From positions 1 through 24,433 of the IMG/VR virus record IMGVR_UViG_3300037424_000176: DNA of 24,433 nt. One strand, written 5' to 3'. Below are positions 6,567 to 24,324 of this stretch, piece by piece (position 1 is the stretch's first letter; every line of letters starts with the position of its first letter). Under the pieces are notes generated by a model, which was not told the DNA's origin, searched no databases, and was given only the letters and a program-made list of their open reading frames with translations. Both the position numbers and the translations under genes were made by a program. The stretch comes from a virus (lineage: Duplodnaviria > Caudoviricetes).

Positions 6567-7268
6567 ATGAGCGAAGTCAAGCTATACCTGGGCGATTGTC
6601 TGGATGTTATGCGCGGGATGCCTAGCGGGAGTGCGGACGCGGTGATTACCTCACCGCCTTTTAACTTAGGCAATGGACACCATACAGGCAATATCAGGCA
6701 CAACCCATACCATGATGATTTACCTGAGCCGATATATCAAGAGACGCAGATAAAAATTCTGGCAGAAATATATAGGGTTTTAAGAGACGATGGCAGCTTG
6801 TTTTATCAGCACAAAAACCGGATAAAAGACGGTCGCCAGATAACGCCCTATGAATGGTTGCTGAAAACGGACTTTGTAATAAAACAAGAGCTGGTGTGGC
6901 GTAATAGGTCACAGAACTTTGACAAAATAAGATTCTATCCACAAACAGAAAGAGTTTATTGGATGGCAAAACACCCGAGCGTTACGATTTACAACGTTAT
7001 CAACGCCCCTGATATTTTCGACTGGCAGGCTGTTGGAACTAACGGAAGTCACACCAGAGCATTTCCGGTTGAGTTCCCTTCACAAATGCTTGCGTGCTTA
7101 CCAGACGCTAAAAATGTTCTTGACCCCTTTATGGGCAGCGGGACAACGGGAATAGCGTGTTTGAATATGGGCCGCAACTTCATCGGCATTGAGATCGACC
7201 AGACTTATTTTGAGATAGCCGAGAAGCGGATAGCTCAGGCAAAACTACAAATCAGGATGCCAATATGA
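6567..7268 (+). CDS. Beta-class N4/N6 DNA methyltransferase 2
   Basis: MSEVKLYLGDC, motif IV TSPPF, motif I DPFMGSGTT. Confidence 0.92.
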   Translation: MSEVKLYLGDCLDVMRGMPSGSADAVITSPPFNLGNGHHTGNIRHNPYHDDLPEPIYQETQIKILAEIYRVLRDDGSLFYQHKNRIKDGRQITPYEWLLKTDFVIKQELVWRNRSQNFDKIRFYPQTERVYWMAKHPSVTIYNVINAPDIFDWQAVGTNGSHTRAFPVEFPSQMLACLPDAKNVLDPFMGSGTTGIACLNMGRNFIGIEIDQTYFEIAEKRIAQAKLQIRMPI

Positions 7269-8231: not shown

Positions 8232-9134
8232 ATGCTAAATAAACTATTCAGGCGGGAGGAACAGCCAACCCATACCAGCGGGCGGGCTATCGTTCCACTT
8301 ATCTCGGATACCCACGGCGGCCACTCTGGGGCGCTGATGAACCCTGACACAGTGCTTGAGCTTGAGGACCAGGAAGGCGAGATTTACGAATACAAGCCCG
8401 AGATGACTGAGATCCAGAAATACCTTTGGAATGTTTACGTGATCGGCCTGGAAGGTATCTCCGCCCTGTCTCGCGGCGATCCGCTTTTTGGTATCCACGA
8501 TGGCGACAACATCGAAGGCGACAAACACCCATCCGAGCTAGTGCGCCCCGAGAAGCACGCTCAATTGCAGATAGCCGTTTACAACTTGCGCCCGTTTTGC
8601 AGTCTACCCGGCATGAGTTATCTCAGGCTAGTCAAGGGCACGGGCGCGCACGAGTTTGGGTTTTCGTCTGCGACTATGGAGATCCTGCGAACCATGCGGC
8701 TGCTGTATCCGGCCATTGACATGAAGGCCATAATGTTGGGGCTGCTGACCATCAACGGGGTAGAGATTGATTACTCCCATCACGGAGCATCGGCAGGCAG
8801 GCGCAAGTGGCTGGAAGGCAACGAGGCCCGCTACTATCTACGTGACCGCATGGTGCGCGACATATCCATGCGCGGCAGGCCCGCCGATATTTACATCCGC
8901 GGCCACTACCACACACCCCTGATTGAGCACCTGCGAGTGGACGGCTTCTGGTCGATCCTGCTGCTCATGCCCAGCATGAAGATTGGCGGGGAGTTTGCGG
9001 CCCAGGCAACCCGCAGCGTACCGAGTATCACCAACGGGCTGGCTGCTCTGGAAATCGAAGGCGGCAAGATCAGGGACGTTCACGAGTTCTATTCATCCGT
9101 GGATATGAGGACCAAGGAGGAGATACTTGTTTAG
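8232..9134 (+). CDS. Metallophosphoesterase-superfamily protein
   Basis: ISDTHGGH, HDGDNIEG, GTGAH, HH, RGHYH. Confidence 0.8.
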   Translation: MLNKLFRREEQPTHTSGRAIVPLISDTHGGHSGALMNPDTVLELEDQEGEIYEYKPEMTEIQKYLWNVYVIGLEGISALSRGDPLFGIHDGDNIEGDKHPSELVRPEKHAQLQIAVYNLRPFCSLPGMSYLRLVKGTGAHEFGFSSATMEILRTMRLLYPAIDMKAIMLGLLTINGVEIDYSHHGASAGRRKWLEGNEARYYLRDRMVRDISMRGRPADIYIRGHYHTPLIEHLRVDGFWSILLLMPSMKIGGEFAAQATRSVPSITNGLAALEIEGGKIRDVHEFYSSVDMRTKEEILV

Positions 9135-10746: not shown

Positions 10747-11748
10747 ATGAGACGACAGCTAGATATACCGATGATGATGACGCAGATGGGGGGAGGGTTT
10801 CATCTGCCCTTTAGTGTGGATTTCACCGGCCTGACATCTGTTCCTGCCCCGTTCGCCGGGGCCAATCTATCTATAGCTGCCGGTAAGCTGATTGTTACGC
10901 CGACGTTGGGCGCTAACCTGCTTATCAATCCCACCTTTACAAGCTGGACAACCGACAATCCTAACAGCTGGTCAGCTACCGAATCGCCTCCCACCACAGA
11001 AATATCAGAGGTTGGGACTGGCGAGGGTCACGGCGGGGCGGGCACGGGGATGTGCAATGTCTACTCATCCGATGGCACGTTTGTGGTGATCTGGCAAACG
11101 GTGCTGACGGCAGGGCTATGGTACTGGGCAAACCTCGTAATCAATACCGTAGTTGCCGGTGGAATATCGCTGATCGAAAGCAATGCAAACGCCATAAAAG
11201 ACTACACCACAGCGGCAAGCCCAACGATAACCTTCCCGTCCCTTAGCGGCGCAAGCCCCGGTCGTTTCGATATTCGGCGACTTGCCGGAGGCGCAGCAGA
11301 CGTAACCATCGACAACACAGTTGTGAAAGCAATCACGACAACCACGCTTCTGGCTGCTGGTGTGCCGCAAACAAATACGCCAAACGTGATTGTAAAGGCT
11401 GGCTGGACGCTGACCGCGGACCTGCCTGCCGGAACGATTGCTCGCCTGGATAGTACCAGCAACCCACAGAACTTTCTATTGGCCTGTCACGACAGGACAA
11501 ACGCTCGACTATACAAGTGTGTCAGCGGCACGTACACCAAGTTAGTGGATGCGGCGGCAGCTTATTCCGCGGGCGCAGATGTCGAGATACGCTGCAATGG
11601 GGAAACCGTGCAGCTCTACTACAACGATGTTCAAATCGGGGCAGACCAGACCGTCTCCGATGCTGCGCTCCTCGATGGCGGATATAACCTACCCTGGTCC
11701 ACCAGCGCGGCCAATGCCTGCGGGAGTTTTTCAATCGCCCCTTTTTGA
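10747..11748 (+). CDS. Beta-rich CBM/lectin-like protein, possibly virion-associated
   Basis: GGAGG SD before ATG 10747; NLLINPTF..W CBM-like start; T/A/G/S-rich. Confidence 0.65.
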   Translation: MRRQLDIPMMMTQMGGGFHLPFSVDFTGLTSVPAPFAGANLSIAAGKLIVTPTLGANLLINPTFTSWTTDNPNSWSATESPPTTEISEVGTGEGHGGAGTGMCNVYSSDGTFVVIWQTVLTAGLWYWANLVINTVVAGGISLIESNANAIKDYTTAASPTITFPSLSGASPGRFDIRRLAGGAADVTIDNTVVKAITTTTLLAAGVPQTNTPNVIVKAGWTLTADLPAGTIARLDSTSNPQNFLLACHDRTNARLYKCVSGTYTKLVDAAAAYSAGADVEIRCNGETVQLYYNDVQIGADQTVSDAALLDGGYNLPWSTSAANACGSFSIAPF

Positions 11749-11787
11749 GCAGCCCTGGTACTGTCGCAACCTCCCCGTACCAGGGCT
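11722..11787 (+). promoter_or_regulatory. Putative -1 programmed ribosomal frameshift signal
   Basis: GGGAG (11722-11726); in-frame C_CCT_TTT heptamer (11739-11745) directly before TGA; 5-nt spacer; perfect 11-bp stem 11751-11761/11777-11787; next ORF is in the -1 frame. Confidence 0.6.
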
Positions 11788-12617
11788 ATACAGGAGCGGA
11801 AACGGCCTACAAAGGGTCTTTGCATTGCCACACGAACGAGAGCGATGGTGAGGGTACGCCGACCGAGTTAGCGACGGCATACGAGGCCGCTGATTACGAC
11901 TGGGTATGCGCTACCGATCACGATTTCTTGACTGCTGATACACCAACCGCCGATCCTGGGGTGCCTGGGATAGTATGGATATTAGGACTGGAGGAAACGG
12001 TAACCCTGAACGAGCACAGCGCCCACATTGCGGTAGGCAACATCGCAGCGGGCGATCCTGGGGCAGGCACTCCGCAAGACGCCATTGATAACGCTCCCTA
12101 TGCTCAGCTTGCCCACCCCTGGAGCGTAATCGGGCCACCAGCCGCACACTTTACGGATGCAGAAATGCTGGCGCTGACCGGATACGAGAGCATCGAGGTT
12201 ACCGATCCTATCGATCCAACGGGGTGGGACGTGGTGCTGACGGCGGGGATGCAGGTAGGTGGCGCTCCTACAGACGATGCCCATACGCTGACGGCTTACG
12301 GTACTCTCGCACGCTACTATGTTTACGCTGATGCGCTCACGGTGGGCGGGATCATTGCTGCGTTGCAGGCGCTTGCGTGGTACGCCACTCAAGGGCCGAC
12401 CCTGACCATCTCCGATGATGGCACTCGCTTACTGGTGACCACTCCAACCGCAGCGGACTTTACGTTCATTGGTTCGGGAGGCGCGACCCTAAAGACAGCG
12501 GTGAACGCAACCGCTGTCAGCTACCACTACCACAGCAGCGATGGTTACGTACGGTGTGTGGTAAAGCGATTGAGTGATAACAAATATGCCTGGACTAATG
12601 CGATATTTATCAACTAG
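11745..12617 (+). CDS. PHP-family phosphoesterase (CehA/McbA-like)
   Basis: YKGSLHCHT..SDG, ATDH, E..H, AHP, DDAH, GYVRC..AWTNAIF. Confidence 0.85.
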   Translation: MSSPGTVATSPYQGYTGAETAYKGSLHCHTNESDGEGTPTELATAYEAADYDWVCATDHDFLTADTPTADPGVPGIVWILGLEETVTLNEHSAHIAVGNIAAGDPGAGTPQDAIDNAPYAQLAHPWSVIGPPAAHFTDAEMLALTGYESIEVTDPIDPTGWDVVLTAGMQVGGAPTDDAHTLTAYGTLARYYVYADALTVGGIIAALQALAWYATQGPTLTISDDGTRLLVTTPTAADFTFIGSGGATLKTAVNATAVSYHYHSSDGYVRCVVKRLSDNKYAWTNAIFIN

Positions 12618-18532: not shown

Positions 18533-18547
18533 TTGCCAGGAGTAATA

Positions 18548-19408
18548 ATGGCACAACTCAACACTTATAGCGATATTTCCAGTATCGCTCCCAACATCCA
18601 GGAAGATGCGATCTTCGTGATCCGCGAGCTGGGGCTGATGCAGTCCCTCGTGAAAACCTTCCGCGACGCCACCGGGGCCAATCCCCGCGTCGGCTATACC
18701 TATAACCAGGGCACCGTCACGTCCCTGGCAGAAACGGACGACCTGACCAGCTCAGCCTTCACGCCTTCCGCTGACCAAACCCTGACCCCCGCTGAAATCG
18801 GTCTGCAGTTCTTCGTGACCGACCTGCGGGCGGCCACCGATGCGCCGGAGGATGTCATCTCCGACGGCGGCCTGGAATTGGGCATGGCGGCTGCTGACAA
18901 AATCGAGACTGACCTGCTGGGCGATCTCGCCAGCCTGACCGGCGGCACCGTCGGCACAGCTGGCTCCACGATCACCTGGGGTTACCTGTCCGCTGCTATC
19001 GCTCGCGCCCGCAACGCTAACAAATCCAACACCATCCCGCTGAACGTCGTGCTTCACGGCTACCAGTGGGAAGTGCTGTCCAGCTCAGCAACCATCGCCG
19101 GCGCTACCGTGGCCGCAACCGCTCCGGGCTTCCAAGAGGAATTGACCCGCAGCGGGTTCGTTGCGACCTACAGCGGCGCTCGGATCTACCAGGTCTGGGG
19201 CGGGCTTGTCAGCACCAACTTCACGGGCGGCGTGTTCCCCCGTGATGCAATTGCTATCGACTGGCGGCGCGGCGTGCGGGTAGAGCCCGAGCGTGACGCT
19301 TCCCGACGTGGCACCGAGTTCAACATGTCCGCTGTATATGCTCATGGTATTTGGCGGCCCTCCCGCGGCGTCCAGTTCGTCTTCGACGCCAGCGCACCGA
19401 CCTCATAA
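18548..19408 (+). CDS. Major capsid protein
   Basis: AGGAG SD before ATG 18548; follows scaffold; strong codon bias; C-terminal VEPERDASRRGTEF..YAHG. Confidence 0.85.
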   Translation: MAQLNTYSDISSIAPNIQEDAIFVIRELGLMQSLVKTFRDATGANPRVGYTYNQGTVTSLAETDDLTSSAFTPSADQTLTPAEIGLQFFVTDLRAATDAPEDVISDGGLELGMAAADKIETDLLGDLASLTGGTVGTAGSTITWGYLSAAIARARNANKSNTIPLNVVLHGYQWEVLSSSATIAGATVAATAPGFQEELTRSGFVATYSGARIYQVWGGLVSTNFTGGVFPRDAIAIDWRRGVRVEPERDASRRGTEFNMSAVYAHGIWRPSRGVQFVFDASAPTS

Positions 19409-19420
19409 GGAGCATAAACC

Positions 19421-19804
19421 ATGGCTAACAGTTTTGATGTCCACATCCTGACCTTCCCGGTGGTTCTGACCGCCGGAACCCAGGTTCCTCTGGTCCACCT
19501 GCCCGAAGCTGGCGGCGGGGCCACTGTCCTGGAAGCAAAGATGATTAATGCCGGTACGAGCGTCGGCCCGCTGCTACTCACCATGACCAACGTTGGCACG
19601 CCCGCTATCAGCGGCACGGTCGGCTACTTTGCCGCAGCCGCCGCCGGCACGATCACCGAATCCGCAACCATCCCCGCGGCCATGACCCTCTCTGATGGGT
19701 ATGTGGCGGCTGGCGAATGGCTCGGCTTTGACCAGACCGGAGGCACCGTGCCCGCTGGCTCGTTCATCAGCGTCGCATACGTGAATGGCAGGGCTGGTTC
19801 CTAA
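19421..19804 (+). CDS. Putative capsid decoration/cement protein
   Basis: AAGGAG SD; A/G/T-rich beta protein right after the MCP with the same codon bias. Confidence 0.65.
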   Translation: MANSFDVHILTFPVVLTAGTQVPLVHLPEAGGGATVLEAKMINAGTSVGPLLLTMTNVGTPAISGTVGYFAAAAAGTITESATIPAAMTLSDGYVAAGEWLGFDQTGGTVPAGSFISVAYVNGRAGS

Positions 19805-19908: not shown

Positions 19909-21789
19909 ATGAACATCCTTTGGCTTTCCAACGCTCCCTGGGCGGCTACCGGCTACGGTAACCAAACCCGGCTCTTTACCAAACGAATAAACGACCTGCC
20001 AGAATACAGCCTGTCTATCGCCGCTTTCTACGGCTTAGAGGGCGCACCGCTGACCTGGGACGGCATCAAGATATACCCGCGAGCCTACCACCCTTACGGG
20101 GTGGATATCGCGGCCGCACATGGCGACCAGATCAAGGCTGATGTGATTATCAGCCTGATTGACGCCTGGGTGATGGATGCCGACCTGCTGCAATCCAATG
20201 GAGCGCGCTGGATACCCTGGTTTCCGGTGGACAGCGAACCCTTGCCCGCGGCGGTACTAGGTAAGATCAAAGACGCCTACAAGCGCATCGTGTTCAGCCG
20301 CTTCGGGGAGAAGATGGTACACGACGCCGGGCTTGACTGCTACTACGTGCCGCACGGGATAGATACTAAGACGTTCAAACCAGGCGACCGCAAGGTGGCC
20401 CGCGAGCGGCTAAAGCTGCCGGAGGGTAAGTTCATCGTCGGGATGGTAGCGGCTAACAAGGGCTTTCCGTCTCGCAAGTCGTTCCCTGAGTGTATCTTTG
20501 CCTTTGCGAAGTTCCACGAGGAGCACCCGCACACCCTGCTGTACCTGCACACCACCAAATCAGAGCGGGGTGAAATGAACGGGATGAACCTGCCGGCCTA
20601 CATCGAAGGACTGGGGCTCAAGTTGGGCGAGGATGTCATCTTCTGCGACCAGTATCACGGGATTATAGGCTTCCCAGACAACTACATGGTTGACCTGTAC
20701 AACGCCTTTGACGTGCTGCTATCACCTTCGATGGGCGAGGGCTTCGGAATACCGATCCTTGAGGCGCAGGCTTGCGGATGCCCGGTGATCGTGGGCGATT
20801 GGACGGCCATGAGCGAGTTATGTTTCGCAGGCTGGAAGATCGCCAAAGAGCACTCTCACATGTTCTGGGATCAGGTAGGCGCTTACAAGTTTATGCCCAA
20901 TCCAGCCGCTATCTACCAGGCGCTTGCACAGGCTTACACACAGGCCGGCAAGCTGCGACACAAAGCCCGCAAGGGAGCCGAAGGCTACGACGTTGAGCGG
21001 GTGATGGCGAAATACTGGAAGCCGGTGCTAAAAGAGATTGCCGCCCTGGTTGATGAGTGGAAGCCGAAGCACGTCCACGAATGGATCAAGGTGGGCCTGT
21101 TCAACCCTGACGGCTCGCTATCGACGCCCTGCAAGGCTTGTGGGGCCGAAGCACTATCCGAGAGGGGCAAGCCGACCAGGATCATCGATGGTGGTTTCGA
21201 GAACCCGGACAATCTTGAGTTCGTCCACCCTGACGGCCTGGAATGGCTGCTGCTGAGAGAGACGCGCCGGGACTACGGCGCTGACAAACTGAACCTTAAC
21301 AAATCAAGCATAGTTGTAGACATCGGCGCTCATGTGGGGGTAGTAAGCATGAGCCTGGCGAAGCGCTACGGATGCAAGGTGATCGCCTTCGAGCCGAACC
21401 CGGATAACTTCGCCCGGCTGCTCGAGAACATCATAGCGAATAACTTAGGCAGCCTGATTACAGCGCTACCGTGTGCCGTGACTGGCGACGGGCGCAAGGT
21501 CAAGATCGGCACTGACACTGACAACAGCGGCGGCAATGATATATACGGGGATGGGGTAGAAGTCGAGAGTGTGACGCTAGCAGAAATCATGGATCGAGCG
21601 ATCGGTACGGTTGACCTGCTAAAGATCGACGCTGAGGGGGCCGAATACGAGATCCTGAAAGACGTAGACCTGAGCAACATCCGCGCTATCCGGGGAGAGT
21701 TCCACGGGCAAGACGGTAAGGCGCTGCTAGATGCAGTCACAGCGAAGGTACCCGACACCAGGGTAACGCTGCAAGGATGGACTGGATGA
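19909..21789 (+). CDS. GT4 (GT-B) glycosyltransferase fused to FkbM-family methyltransferase
   Basis: TGYGNQT, VPHGID, RK, PSMGEGFGIPILEAQACG; then VVDIGAHVG, FEP, LLKIDAEGAEYEIL. Confidence 0.92.
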   Translation: MNILWLSNAPWAATGYGNQTRLFTKRINDLPEYSLSIAAFYGLEGAPLTWDGIKIYPRAYHPYGVDIAAAHGDQIKADVIISLIDAWVMDADLLQSNGARWIPWFPVDSEPLPAAVLGKIKDAYKRIVFSRFGEKMVHDAGLDCYYVPHGIDTKTFKPGDRKVARERLKLPEGKFIVGMVAANKGFPSRKSFPECIFAFAKFHEEHPHTLLYLHTTKSERGEMNGMNLPAYIEGLGLKLGEDVIFCDQYHGIIGFPDNYMVDLYNAFDVLLSPSMGEGFGIPILEAQACGCPVIVGDWTAMSELCFAGWKIAKEHSHMFWDQVGAYKFMPNPAAIYQALAQAYTQAGKLRHKARKGAEGYDVERVMAKYWKPVLKEIAALVDEWKPKHVHEWIKVGLFNPDGSLSTPCKACGAEALSERGKPTRIIDGGFENPDNLEFVHPDGLEWLLLRETRRDYGADKLNLNKSSIVVDIGAHVGVVSMSLAKRYGCKVIAFEPNPDNFARLLENIIANNLGSLITALPCAVTGDGRKVKIGTDTDNSGGNDIYGDGVEVESVTLAEIMDRAIGTVDLLKIDAEGAEYEILKDVDLSNIRAIRGEFHGQDGKALLDAVTAKVPDTRVTLQGWTG

Positions 21790-22160
21790 ACGAACACCCA
21801 TTCCTTGAAATTACCGAACACGAATTACCTTTCGGCAAAAGCTATCGGACATATCACTGGCCAGCGAAGCCGTGGCAAGCGGTACTGATTGGCGACCGCG
21901 CCATTGAGTACAGGCACGAAATGCCGTGGAAATTAGTTGAAGTGGAAAGATACCCGGAGTGGCGTGGCAGTCTGTATGTAAGATCGGACGGCTTTCTTCT
22001 TGTCACACGATGCTTAATGGCAGTAAAGATAAAGGTCAAAAAACTACTTGAGTTAGTTTACTACCGCCTGATATTAACGGCTATGGTTTGGGGATTGGCT
22101 TATGTCCCAGACTTTGAAGCACCATCCTGGCGACATCTTGGGAAGCAGAGAAAATGGTAA
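21786..22160 (+). CDS. Hypothetical protein (lower GC, Trp-rich)
   Basis: ATGA overlap at 21786; overlaps the GT2 start. Confidence 0.65.
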   Translation: MNEHPFLEITEHELPFGKSYRTYHWPAKPWQAVLIGDRAIEYRHEMPWKLVEVERYPEWRGSLYVRSDGFLLVTRCLMAVKIKVKKLLELVYYRLILTAMVWGLAYVPDFEAPSWRHLGKQRKW

Positions 22161-22768
22161 GCATCGCAACGCCGTGGATGGGCCATCCTGAGCTGCTCGC
22201 CACCTACCTGCCGACCGTGCGCGGGGCCGAGGTTGTCATCGTGGATAACGCCAGCGACCCGGAGACTGCCCGCAAGCTACAGAACGCCGCCAGCATCTAC
22301 ATTCGCAACGAGGAAAACAACCGCTTTGCGAAGGCCAGCAACCAGGGCATACGGGTCGCTACGAATGACATTATCCTGTGCCTGAACAACGACACCGCCG
22401 CCCCTAGTGGATGGCTGAAAGATGTGGAGAGCACCGTAAAACCGGGCGCGTTCTACGGCCCGAGCGTGATGGTTCGCAAGGTGGACGGCAACCAGGTCAG
22501 GTACATCGAAGGCCACTGCATCGCCGCCACCCGCACAACCTGGGAGGCCGTTGGACTGTGGCCCGAAGATTTACCGGGCATGTACTGGGAGGATAACATC
22601 TTGTGCCTGCGGGCGCTTATAGCAGACATCCCGCTCATTAAGACTAACTGGCCCGTGCAGCACTATGGCAATTACACCGCCCGGCATGTGGTCGATTCGA
22701 TAGCGTTCAGCGAAGACAACCGCAAGACTTTTGAGGACATGTACCGTGCATATCATTACCAGCACTAA
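22154..22768 (+). CDS. GT2 (GT-A) glycosyltransferase
   Basis: VVIVDNAS, NNRFAKASNQG, LNND, YWEDNILCLRA, H. Confidence 0.9.
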   Translation: MVSIATPWMGHPELLATYLPTVRGAEVVIVDNASDPETARKLQNAASIYIRNEENNRFAKASNQGIRVATNDIILCLNNDTAAPSGWLKDVESTVKPGAFYGPSVMVRKVDGNQVRYIEGHCIAATRTTWEAVGLWPEDLPGMYWEDNILCLRALIADIPLIKTNWPVQHYGNYTARHVVDSIAFSEDNRKTFEDMYRAYHYQH

Positions 22769-22798: not shown

Positions 22799-23569
22799 GT
22801 GATCACATACACGTCATTCAAGGACCACCCGCTGACTTCTATCAGCTTCTACCGGAACACCACCCGCTTTGAGCCGACCAGCAACGGGCCGCTGCACCTG
22901 GGACACCTGTACATGATCCTGGTCAACTACCACGAGGCGAGATCCACCGGCGGCAAGTTTGTGTTCAGGATCGAGGACAACAGCCAGGAATGGAACTGGC
23001 GCTGCGGTAAAGAGACCACGCAAGACTATATCAACGGCTACCGGGCAGACCTGGAATGGCTGGGTATCGAGCCGGATGAATGGCTTCTTGAGAGTGAGTT
23101 GGAAGCGGAAGTCAACGAGATCCGCGAGATGCTAGCTCCCGATTGGGAAGCTGAGAAGAAGGTCATGTACTTCGTGCCGTGGGTGCCATTCGATGAAGCG
23201 GTGACATACTACCCATATGCGCCGCACCTGACGATTAGTCGGGTAATCCTTGACTGTTATGCGGGCGTGACCCTGCTCATTCGAGGCAACGACCTGTTGA
23301 CCGAACACTGCCTGTATATGCACTTATGCGACCGGCTGGGACTGCCTAAGCCTCGCTGCGTGTACCTGCCCCGCCTGCGGCTTCAAAGCAAAAAGGAGCT
23401 TCTGGGATCGATCAGCAAGACCAGCGGCGGTTTCTCTATTGCCAGATACCGTGACGAGGGCTGGAAGCCCAAGGACTTGCTCGCTGAATTGCGCCGGGCC
23501 TGCCTGAACGACCCAGAGGGCGATTGGACGATCAGGAACGTGAAGCGGGAGCCGCTATGGTCGATGTGA
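22799..23569 (+). CDS. Glutamyl-tRNA synthetase-like (class Ib catalytic domain only) paralog
   Basis: TRFEPTSNGPLHLGH (HIGH), GGKFVFRIED, DLEWLG, LLIRGNDLL, ISKT (KMSKS-like), SIARYRDEGW; no anticodon-binding domain. Confidence 0.88.
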   Translation: MITYTSFKDHPLTSISFYRNTTRFEPTSNGPLHLGHLYMILVNYHEARSTGGKFVFRIEDNSQEWNWRCGKETTQDYINGYRADLEWLGIEPDEWLLESELEAEVNEIREMLAPDWEAEKKVMYFVPWVPFDEAVTYYPYAPHLTISRVILDCYAGVTLLIRGNDLLTEHCLYMHLCDRLGLPKPRCVYLPRLRLQSKKELLGSISKTSGGFSIARYRDEGWKPKDLLAELRRACLNDPEGDWTIRNVKREPLWSM

Positions 23570-24324
23570 CCATCCACTTGGGCGACTGCTTAGAGATATT
23601 ACCTACCATCGAGGCGGGGAGTGTGGACGCTATCCTGACTGACATCCCCTACGGCACGACCGCCTGCGCATGGGATGAGGTTATCCCGTTCGAGCCGATG
23701 TGGGAGCAAGTCAAGCGGGTACTTAAGCCGCGGGGCGTGTTTGTGACTACGGCAAGTCAGCCGTTTACGTCAAGACTGGTTATGAGTAATGTTGGGTGGT
23801 TTCGCTATACATGGATTTGGGACAAAGGGGTAAGCGGCTCGTTTACCCTTGCGAAGTATCAACCACTTAGAACGCACGAAGATATTTTGGTATTTAGCCA
23901 CAATGGGCATACATACAATCCGCAAATGGTAAAGCGTGATAGGCCAGCGAGGATTGGCGGAGTAAAGGGCGGCAAAACAACATCGGGAGGCGCATCAATT
24001 CAATATAACCCCGATAAGTTATCAGACAAGAAGGTTTATACAGACGCTTTCCCAAAGACAGTATTTTACTACTCGCCAAGAAGCGACAGAGAGCGCGGCC
24101 TACACCCTACCCAGAAGCCCGTCGCCCTGTACAAGTACCTGACGCTGACCTACACCAACGAGGGCGACACGATACTGGACATCGCAGCGGGGAGCGGCAC
24201 AACCGGAGTGGCGGCGGTAGAGACTGGGCGCAACTTCATCGGGATTGAGAAGCGAGAGGACTACTTCGAGATTATGCAGAAGCGGATAGCAGAGGCGCAG
24301 ATGCAAATGAGGCTGCCAGTATGA
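23557..24324 (+). CDS. Beta-class N4/N6 DNA methyltransferase 3
   Basis: Start at ATG 23557 (MVDVTIHLGDC); TDIPY, HPTQKPV, DIAAGSGTT. Confidence 0.92.
   Translation: MVDVTIHLGDCLEILPTIEAGSVDAILTDIPYGTTACAWDEVIPFEPMWEQVKRVLKPRGVFVTTASQPFTSRLVMSNVGWFRYTWIWDKGVSGSFTLAKYQPLRTHEDILVFSHNGHTYNPQMVKRDRPARIGGVKGGKTTSGGASIQYNPDKLSDKKVYTDAFPKTVFYYSPRSDRERGLHPTQKPVALYKYLTLTYTNEGDTILDIAAGSGTTGVAAVETGRNFIGIEKREDYFEIMQKRIAEAQMQMRLPV

Follow-up and report, generated by a model that had tools for sequence, protein, structure and literature searches.

Only one paralog of glutamyl-tRNA synthetase (GluRS), GluQ, is given a known function in Table 1 of PMC9437257; ligation of an amino acid to an amino sugar by MshC, a class I synthetase paralog, is described in a passage of the same source. 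The main glutamate determinants of GluRS are Arg5, Arg205 and Asp195; Tyr187 is replaced by Met or Leu in many archaeal enzymes, and position 191 is usually occupied by a small residue (PMC2978374). Six contacts to glutamate are given for E. coli GluQ in PMC12736043: Arg9, the backbone of Ala11, Ser13, Glu45, Tyr172 and Arg190. On the phage side, glycosyltransferases (GTs) of mycobacteriophages are reported to glycosylate capsid and tail proteins (PMC12619734, PMC11256854), and in phage glycan clusters NDP-sugars are provided by nucleotidyltransferases of the HIGH fold (PMC7824862).

The stretch of DNA analyzed here (the window, 24,433 nucleotides) was classed as virus by genome classification, and carries at 22799..23569, on the + strand, a single open frame for a 256-aa protein identified by Pfam and by its predicted structure as a minimal GluRS-fold enzyme, made up by the catalytic core only. 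The N-terminus is common to close relatives. The Pfam tRNA-synt_1c domain (PF00749) is matched with 76.5 bits against a cut-off of 23.4 (E 2e-21), and the protein features the class Ib GluRS/GlnRS catalytic fold, a Rossmann core with HIGH and KMSKS motifs. The motifs listed in an earlier sequence-only reading of this DNA, those for ATP among them, are all in place: RFEPTSNG at residues 23-30, HLGH at 33-36, RIED at 57-60, IRGND at 161-165 and ISKT at 205-208. That reading had also claimed a gap of about 58 residues after WLGIEPDE, 58 being the exact distance from E94 to D152, and the loss of the Tyr of the Y(H/N)xAxVVDD segment, confirmed by profile-profile alignments placing L144 at the Tyr and D152 at the second Asp. 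Both losses that it reported, of the Zn motif and of the anticodon domain, hold true as well. Cys residues in a Zn-type pattern were found in 2 of 150 family members, vs. 25 of 94 full GluRS; about 50 residues follow the KMSKS-like motif, vs. about 225 in full GluRS, and the anticodon domain is therefore absent. PF19269 was not found in the enzyme by the Pfam search. Promoter and terminator signals were at chance level or below.

The structure prediction which had been suggested gave an AlphaFold model of high confidence (pLDDT 91.5), compared here with known structures by fold. Among 48,161 chains, the best match is a bacterial GluRS (Z 20.7, rmsd 2.4 Å, 208 residues aligned), matches 1-8 are all bacterial GluRS or GluQ (Z 18.7-20.7, GluQ itself scoring 18.7), and no cytidylyltransferase-type chain occurs in the best 50. 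The similarity to GluRS is far above chance level. The enzyme falls short of the NCBIfam models of GltX (TIGR00464, 58.5 vs. 289.95; TIGR00463, 55.5 vs. 401.75) and of GluQ (NF004315, 79.4 vs. 250; TIGR03838, 60.6 vs. 276.7).

Tailed-phage genes precede the enzyme gene, and encode terminase subunits, an SPP1-type portal, a head morphogenesis protein, a scaffold and the major capsid protein. The latter (18533..19408, +; PHROG 544 and 267) lies just upstream of a glycan island, an order repeated in loci L002 and L123. The small conserved gene found next (19421..19804, +) has no family match, belongs to a cluster common to the same two loci, and possibly encodes a head decoration protein. It is followed by a GT4 glycosyltransferase fused to an FkbM-type methyltransferase (19909..21789, +; Pfam and NCBIfam searches), a 127-aa ORF with no family match, singleton among the compared loci (21777..22160, +), a GT2 glycosyltransferase (22154..22768, +; PF00535, E 4e-14) directly upstream of the enzyme, the enzyme, an N6/N4 DNA methyltransferase (23524..24324, +; PF01555, E 5e-33), and the first 37 codons of a sugar ABC permease, truncated where the contig stops (24321..24433, +), 68% identical over 37 aa (E 1e-16) to the permease beside the L187 homolog. 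The methyltransferase is probably an insertion, because enzyme and permease are adjacent in relatives. Past the contig end a binding protein and a glycosidase-like barrel would be expected, by analogy with these relatives. No tRNA genes were found in the window.

Further observations were made on the window and on related loci. Three DNA methyltransferase-like genes, related to each other, reside at 824-1675, 6567-7268 and 23524-24324, the scan of such genes covering the third, and in L199 and L263 similar genes have been inserted beside the enzyme. Before the terminase (11745-12617) there is a CehA/McbA-like metallohydrolase scoring below cut-off, and close to the endolysin (8232-9134) a protein of 300 aa that matches no family. 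Ser is the last residue of the capsid proteins of the window, L002, L123, L139 and L128, whose genes all lie upstream of GT genes, and four of these proteins have PTS at the C-terminus; in four further proteins, from capsid genes or genes at the capsid position, the last residue is Ala (twice), Phe or Gly. The Ser/PTS ends are possibly a glycan attachment site, a weak pattern because four of the five capsid proteins are homologous.

A conserved glycan/ABC module around the enzyme gene was overlooked in the earlier reading. The neighbours of the enzyme gene were monitored in 116 usable loci retrieved by viral and metagenome scans, window included, forming 73 groups at 90% identity; 35 short metagenome matches without flanks were excluded. 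Counts within 6 kb refer to the 24 groups having at least 3.5 kb downstream. A GH42/GH14-like barrel of 310-400 aa is encoded on the same strand in 23 of these 24 loci, a monosaccharide-type ABC permease in 16, the sugar-binding protein of the importer in 16, and GT2, GT4, GT17 or NDP-sugar dehydratase genes in 18. The other six do not match any of the five GT/NDP-sugar profiles, and some carry other GT types; enzyme and barrel only are seen in L270 and L274. The GT2 and GT4 clusters of the window reside near the enzyme gene in 14 and 11 of the 73 dereplicated loci, respectively. GT17 is a separate neighbour in 6/73, and is fused to the enzyme in a single sequence from a 3-kb contig (P0187). 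Since an ABC ATPase was found in only 7 of the 73 groups, the host ATPase is probably used. Locus L128 has a different, unrelated sugar ABC type, plus a GH36 glycosidase. One jumbo phage carries two enzyme copies, each beside a barrel; the second (L274, 4636-16788) sits in a PrkA-DUF444-SpoVR cluster, near an HldE-like kinase-nucleotidyltransferase.

The neighbour profiles were built from these same neighbours, and the reverse test was therefore run. Scanning with the barrel, 11 of 13 viral loci hold the enzyme, the two misses starting mid-module (contig end or fragment); scanning with the permease, 11 of 15 do, three of the four misses being at a contig end or fragments, the fourth (L264) showing a weak permease match only. 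Four new contigs emerged (L259, L263, L270 and L273), all with the enzyme.

The barrel matches GH42 beta-galactosidases at the profile level (E 5e-11), and beta-amylases and GH35 by fold. Glu is found at the first catalytic position in 38/38 sequences, and at the second in 71%, with coverage below Pfam quality. In L123, L132, L139, L169 and L011, where two barrel paralogs occur, the second catalytic position of one of them is often Gln, which points to pairs made up by one active and one binding-only member. In L138 (7317-8372, -), as in L012, L160, L166 and L193, a protein of 250-350 aa is encoded directly downstream of the enzyme, in the place of the barrel. These five proteins gave no Pfam or NCBIfam match and no convincing alignment to the barrel (probability under 5%), their ESM Atlas matches to GH-like clusters being under 0.9. 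For the binding protein, the nearest matches are proteins that bind arabinose, glucose and xylose.

The glutamate triad corresponds to R23, R162 and D152 in the window enzyme. These residues are found in 146, 134 and 149 of the 150 family members, respectively, and the triad is complete in 130; D/E59 and T/S27 are each present in 147/150, all five positions together in 124. Of the six GluQ contacts, five are kept, conservatively changed or backbone-only, Tyr alone being lost. The Tyr position is occupied by Leu, Ile, Gln or Phe (Tyr in only 5/150), the first Asp of the DD pair is hydrophobic, position 148 (Asn191-equivalent) is basic, either Lys, Arg or His, in 133/150, and a new Tyr173 is found in 149/150. 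Tyr140 or Tyr173 may fill the place of the lost Tyr. Because the Asn191-equivalent is basic and the Tyr is gone, the bound side chain may not be glutamate. Judged from the conserved residues, an acidic alpha-amino acid still seems to be what the pocket is made for; it is the acceptor side that has changed.

The pocket had been read as remodelled, and so it is, in part: the Tyr is missing, and the remaining contacts and the triad are largely preserved. The step from the lost Tyr to another substrate is not supported, as Leu or Met reside at this position in many archaeal GluRS (PMC2978374), and the triad is retained in 130/150. RFEPTSNG in place of the canonical RFAPSPTG is real, its Glu being a subclade trait (7/150) and not a family-wide one; the norm at this position is Asn (115/150). 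The insert of about half the usual length, with no Zn site, was likewise observed, the W-to-IRG spacing ranging from 63 to 90 with a median of 76 (n=150), vs. a median of 133 in the references (112 of 137 parsed by pattern). It is not diagnostic: three GluRS-like references (P0014, P0105, P0113; 327-334 aa), extended at the C-terminus and with the Tyr pocket intact, have inserts of 61-62, and the zinc domain is missing in 7/212 bacterial GluRS (PMC4381286).

Further variation was observed at position 162. The 16 of 150 members without R162 all have Arg at 169 and a non-basic residue at 148, position 169 being Glu in 128 of the 134 sequences that keep R162. This suggests that two guanidiniums are required, and we read Lys/Arg148 and Glu169 as a pair, with the second Arg relocated in one subfamily. 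The swap is weak as independent evidence, because it corresponds to only two changes on the tree, about one event. The subfamily consists of P0012, P0026, P0030, P0032, P0034, P0036, P0041, P0047, P0051, P0054, P0055, P0124, P0144, P0178, P0193 and P0205. As the basic residue at 148 covaries with E169, it may form a structural salt bridge. Asp44 contacts the tRNA end. Its equivalent is Asp in 99-100% of the GluRS, GluQ-like and short phage GluRS proteins parsed (83/94 full GluRS, 12/17 and 13/15, respectively), and is Gln or Ser in 128/150 family members. By net charge the family cannot be told apart from GluRS or GluQ, and its low pI says little, since GluRS and GluQ are acidic too.

We tentatively regard the protein as a putative core-only GluRS paralog that would activate glutamate or a similar acidic amino acid, and, with no tRNA involved, pass it on to a sugar or glycan on which the adjacent glycosidase-like barrel, sugar importer and GTs act, a proposal whose probability falls slightly below even. 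Its more general part, namely that the predicted enzyme works on an acidic amino acid and not on tRNA, is somewhat more probable than its opposite. ATP and glutamate would yield glutamyl-AMP and PPi, an acidic amino acid being the moderately probable substrate of this step; the glutamyl group would then pass to a sugar hydroxyl or amine, as GluQ does with queuosine and MshC with glucosaminyl-inositol. The importer would bring in the sugar or a small glycoside, the barrel would trim it, and the GTs would place the tailored sugar on a phage-built glycan. The virion is the most likely site, because many copies reside in the head-tail operon, those of the window, L002, L123, L128 and L138 lying between capsid and head-tail genes. 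As a counterpoint, several copies (L016, L126, L150, L192) are found among replication, not structural, genes. A tRNA-independent enzyme for another substrate had been postulated. Both the loss of the Asp44-equivalent and the setting among sugar genes agree with an acceptor other than tRNA; the change of the pocket was overstated. In broader terms, the mobile, widespread module may make an amino-acid-sugar conjugate without known counterpart, either a glutamylated virion coat or a phage-private signal or nutrient, a view held more tentatively still.

The same genes could also serve sugar salvage, the barrel freeing a sugar, the ABC system importing it, and the enzyme, as a nucleotidyltransferase, adding AMP to a sugar phosphate or acid for the GTs. 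This alternative, which we deem unlikely, joins hydrolase, importer and GTs neatly, agrees with the extra basic residue and the larger cavity of the pocket, and has a parallel in the HIGH-fold nucleotidyltransferases of phage glycan clusters (PMC7824862). A sugar kinase is absent from the recurring neighbours, however, and the positions holding an alpha-amino acid are kept (D/E59 and T/S27, 147/150 each). The fold is that of GluRS, with 0 cytidylyltransferase-type chains in the best 50 structural matches, and the basic residue 148, covarying with E169, may be a structural salt bridge.

Rather more doubtful is that the same glutamyl chemistry yields a diffusible glutamyl-sugar or glutamyl-inosamine, released and re-imported as a signal or private nutrient in the manner of opines or rhizopines, and cleaved by the barrel. 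Enzyme and barrel are the most constant unit, the importer coming next, and the pair is found without GT matches in L270 and L274, all of which is in line with such a product. The binding protein points both ways, as it weakly matches rhizopine, allose and AI-2 binding-protein models, but the best of its relatives with a solved structure are monosaccharide binders. Regulators do not recur next to the module, a tyrosine integrase is found in only 1 of 5 carriers, and GT/NDP-sugar neighbours in 18/24 loci, plus the one GT17 fusion, also speak against such a product.

That the enzyme was repurposed for a carboxylate other than glutamate, such as a uronic or organic acid, and acylates a glycan or protein, is improbable to a similar or slightly greater degree. 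The second-shell changes of the pocket could be taken in this sense (Tyr to Leu, small residue to Lys/Arg, hydrophobic first Asp, Tyr173 in 149/150), but the acid binding the alpha-amino group and the Arg/Arg/Asp triad occur together in 124/150 members.

A role on tRNA, in which the enzyme would charge or repair tRNA-Glu to counter host defences, or would glutamylate queuosine or a deazaguanine base in the way of GluQ, is given the same low probability. HLGH, PxNG and RGxDL are common to many GluQ-like proteins, a sister position to GluQ is permitted by the AU test (p 0.454), and GluRS with a short insert can work (PMC4381286). Set against this are the loss of the Asp44-equivalent, and the 23/24 linkage to a glycosidase-like gene, which a tRNA role leaves unexplained. 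QueC and TGT were found in 0/4 near-complete carriers, though the host could supply both, and the single QueC match, which comes from the partial record of the jumbo phage, extends over just 56 of 210 positions. A role in DNA deazaguanine modification was rejected, neither QueC nor TGT being found in the four near-complete carriers.

The comparison with a different clade of short phage GluRS (L018-L035; 274-320 aa) is of help here. Proteins of this control clade have an intact Tyr/DD pocket and nest among bacterial GluRS in the tree; barrel, permease, binding protein and GT/NDP-sugar genes were found in 0/14 of its loci (about 10 distinct). tRNA genes are present in 7 of 10 control loci scanned vs. 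1 of 19 family loci, a contrast biased because the control clade resides mostly on large contigs; in two family carriers, 64 and 20 tRNA matches were counted in other parts of the genome. The countering of tRNA-targeting defences, entertained earlier as an alternative role, fits this clade better than the family, since it is there that a phage enzyme with an intact pocket adjoins tRNA-Glu genes. Three of these lie directly upstream in L025 (9756-10897) and L032 (8887-10531), and the two components are candidate synthetase-tRNA pairs against such defences.

A profile made from the 12 first matches was run against 1.84 billion representatives, and 167 family clusters at 50% identity were obtained with E 1e-30 or better. 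Full-length sequences are 180 of the 216 pooled matches (median 243.5 aa, range 224-296). With the 150-sequence profile, full-length members in the retrieved loci score 239-330 bits, and canonical GluRS, GluQ-like and other short GluRS only 54-107. The phylogeny against gltX and gluQ that had been called for (30 sampled members, 55 references) gives a single family clade with support 100/100 and a long stem, apart from the GluQ-like clade and with no nesting in it; no reliance can be placed on its position next to archaeal GluRS, and the AU test does not reject a tree in which it is forced together with 10 GluQ-like rows (p-AU 0.454). The assertion that the protein is neither GluRS nor GluQ is thus probably right, as shown by its own clade and by scores below all NCBIfam cut-offs, with the qualification that a sister position to GluQ is allowed. 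The family is under purifying selection, dN/dS being 0.05-0.12 (0.054-0.121) in the six pairs that are most informative (dS above 0.8); one near-identical pair gave 0.275, and two further pairs are saturated. Pseudogene decay, named earlier as a finding that would speak against a distinct enzyme, was thus not seen, and a decaying fragment of a host gltX or gluQ, to which the shortness and divergence of the enzyme might point, is refuted by these selection data and has a probability close to nil, given also the 167 clusters, the narrow lengths of the 180 full-length sequences and the near-invariant residues specific to the family.

All family members found come from viral records or from metagenome contigs that lack a classification, and in the three closest ESM Atlas clusters 86-100% of the members having a record are viral. 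A GTDB scan covering 3 of 64 parts was filled with canonical GluRS, and carries no weight on presence in cells. No match to the enzyme was detected in 401 genomes, nor to the barrel in 301, of the phylum of an Anaerolineae MAG, a guessed host phylum, with 6-7 candidates scored per genome; the enzyme alignment used recovered 5/5 viral carriers. A cultured-phage collection gave 19 weak matches, 0 reaching 80% coverage. The search for longer fused forms, which returned one unrelated synthetase only, was insensitive, because the P0187 fusion was missed.

This is apparently a conserved family inside a module with no description so far. None was found in searches of an open-access library; a supplementary table of some phage survey could list the family by its automatic name. 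The database label is now 'glutamyl/glutaminyl-tRNA synthetase', and members are likely counted among phage translation genes. By score, architecture and pocket the family belongs to neither GltX nor GluQ, yet would work like known synthetase paralogs, and would be a second, large family of GluRS paralogs besides GluQ. The fixed partners of the enzyme yield a short, testable list of substrates, and the module offers a small soluble ligase scaffold. If the glutamate-to-sugar reading is true, a translation enzyme would have been re-purposed by phages to tailor glycans by an undescribed viral route, with an own sugar importer, and no aminoacyl-tRNA synthetase paralog would have been shown to work in viral glycobiology before this one.

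Among known systems, GltX resembles the enzyme in structure (Z up to 20.7), HIGH and KMSKS-like motifs and the Arg5/Arg205/Asp195 triad; unlike GltX, the family lacks anticodon-binding domains, has the zinc region deleted, and reads NPTxNG for APSPTG. The short phage GluRS clade is phage-borne as well and much shorter than cellular GluRS, but features the intact Tyr/DD pocket, resides near tRNA genes and has no glycan module. Phage sugar clusters with NDP-sugar enzymes (PMC7824862) resemble the setting of the module; in the passages on these, and in the ones on mycobacteriophage virion-glycosylation sets, neither a synthetase paralog nor a glycosidase-like partner nor a sugar importer is mentioned. 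GluQ/YadB (PDB 4a91; Z 18.7, rmsd 2.4 Å, 203 residues) is a GluRS paralog restricted to the catalytic domain, as is the window enzyme with its 256 aa and the family with its median of 243.5 aa; HLGH and RGxDL are in common, and five of the six glutamate contacts are retained or equivalent. The window enzyme differs from GluQ in missing the Tyr172-equivalent, the Zn motif and the Asp44-equivalent, and in an insert about half as long, and the family in forming a separate clade in the free tree, phage-borne and residing in glycan islands. MshC, a CysRS paralog of mycothiol synthesis, is cellular, of CysRS descent and a member of another family (16% identity, Z 13.8 to the enzyme); it is nevertheless the best precedent for the possible mode of action.
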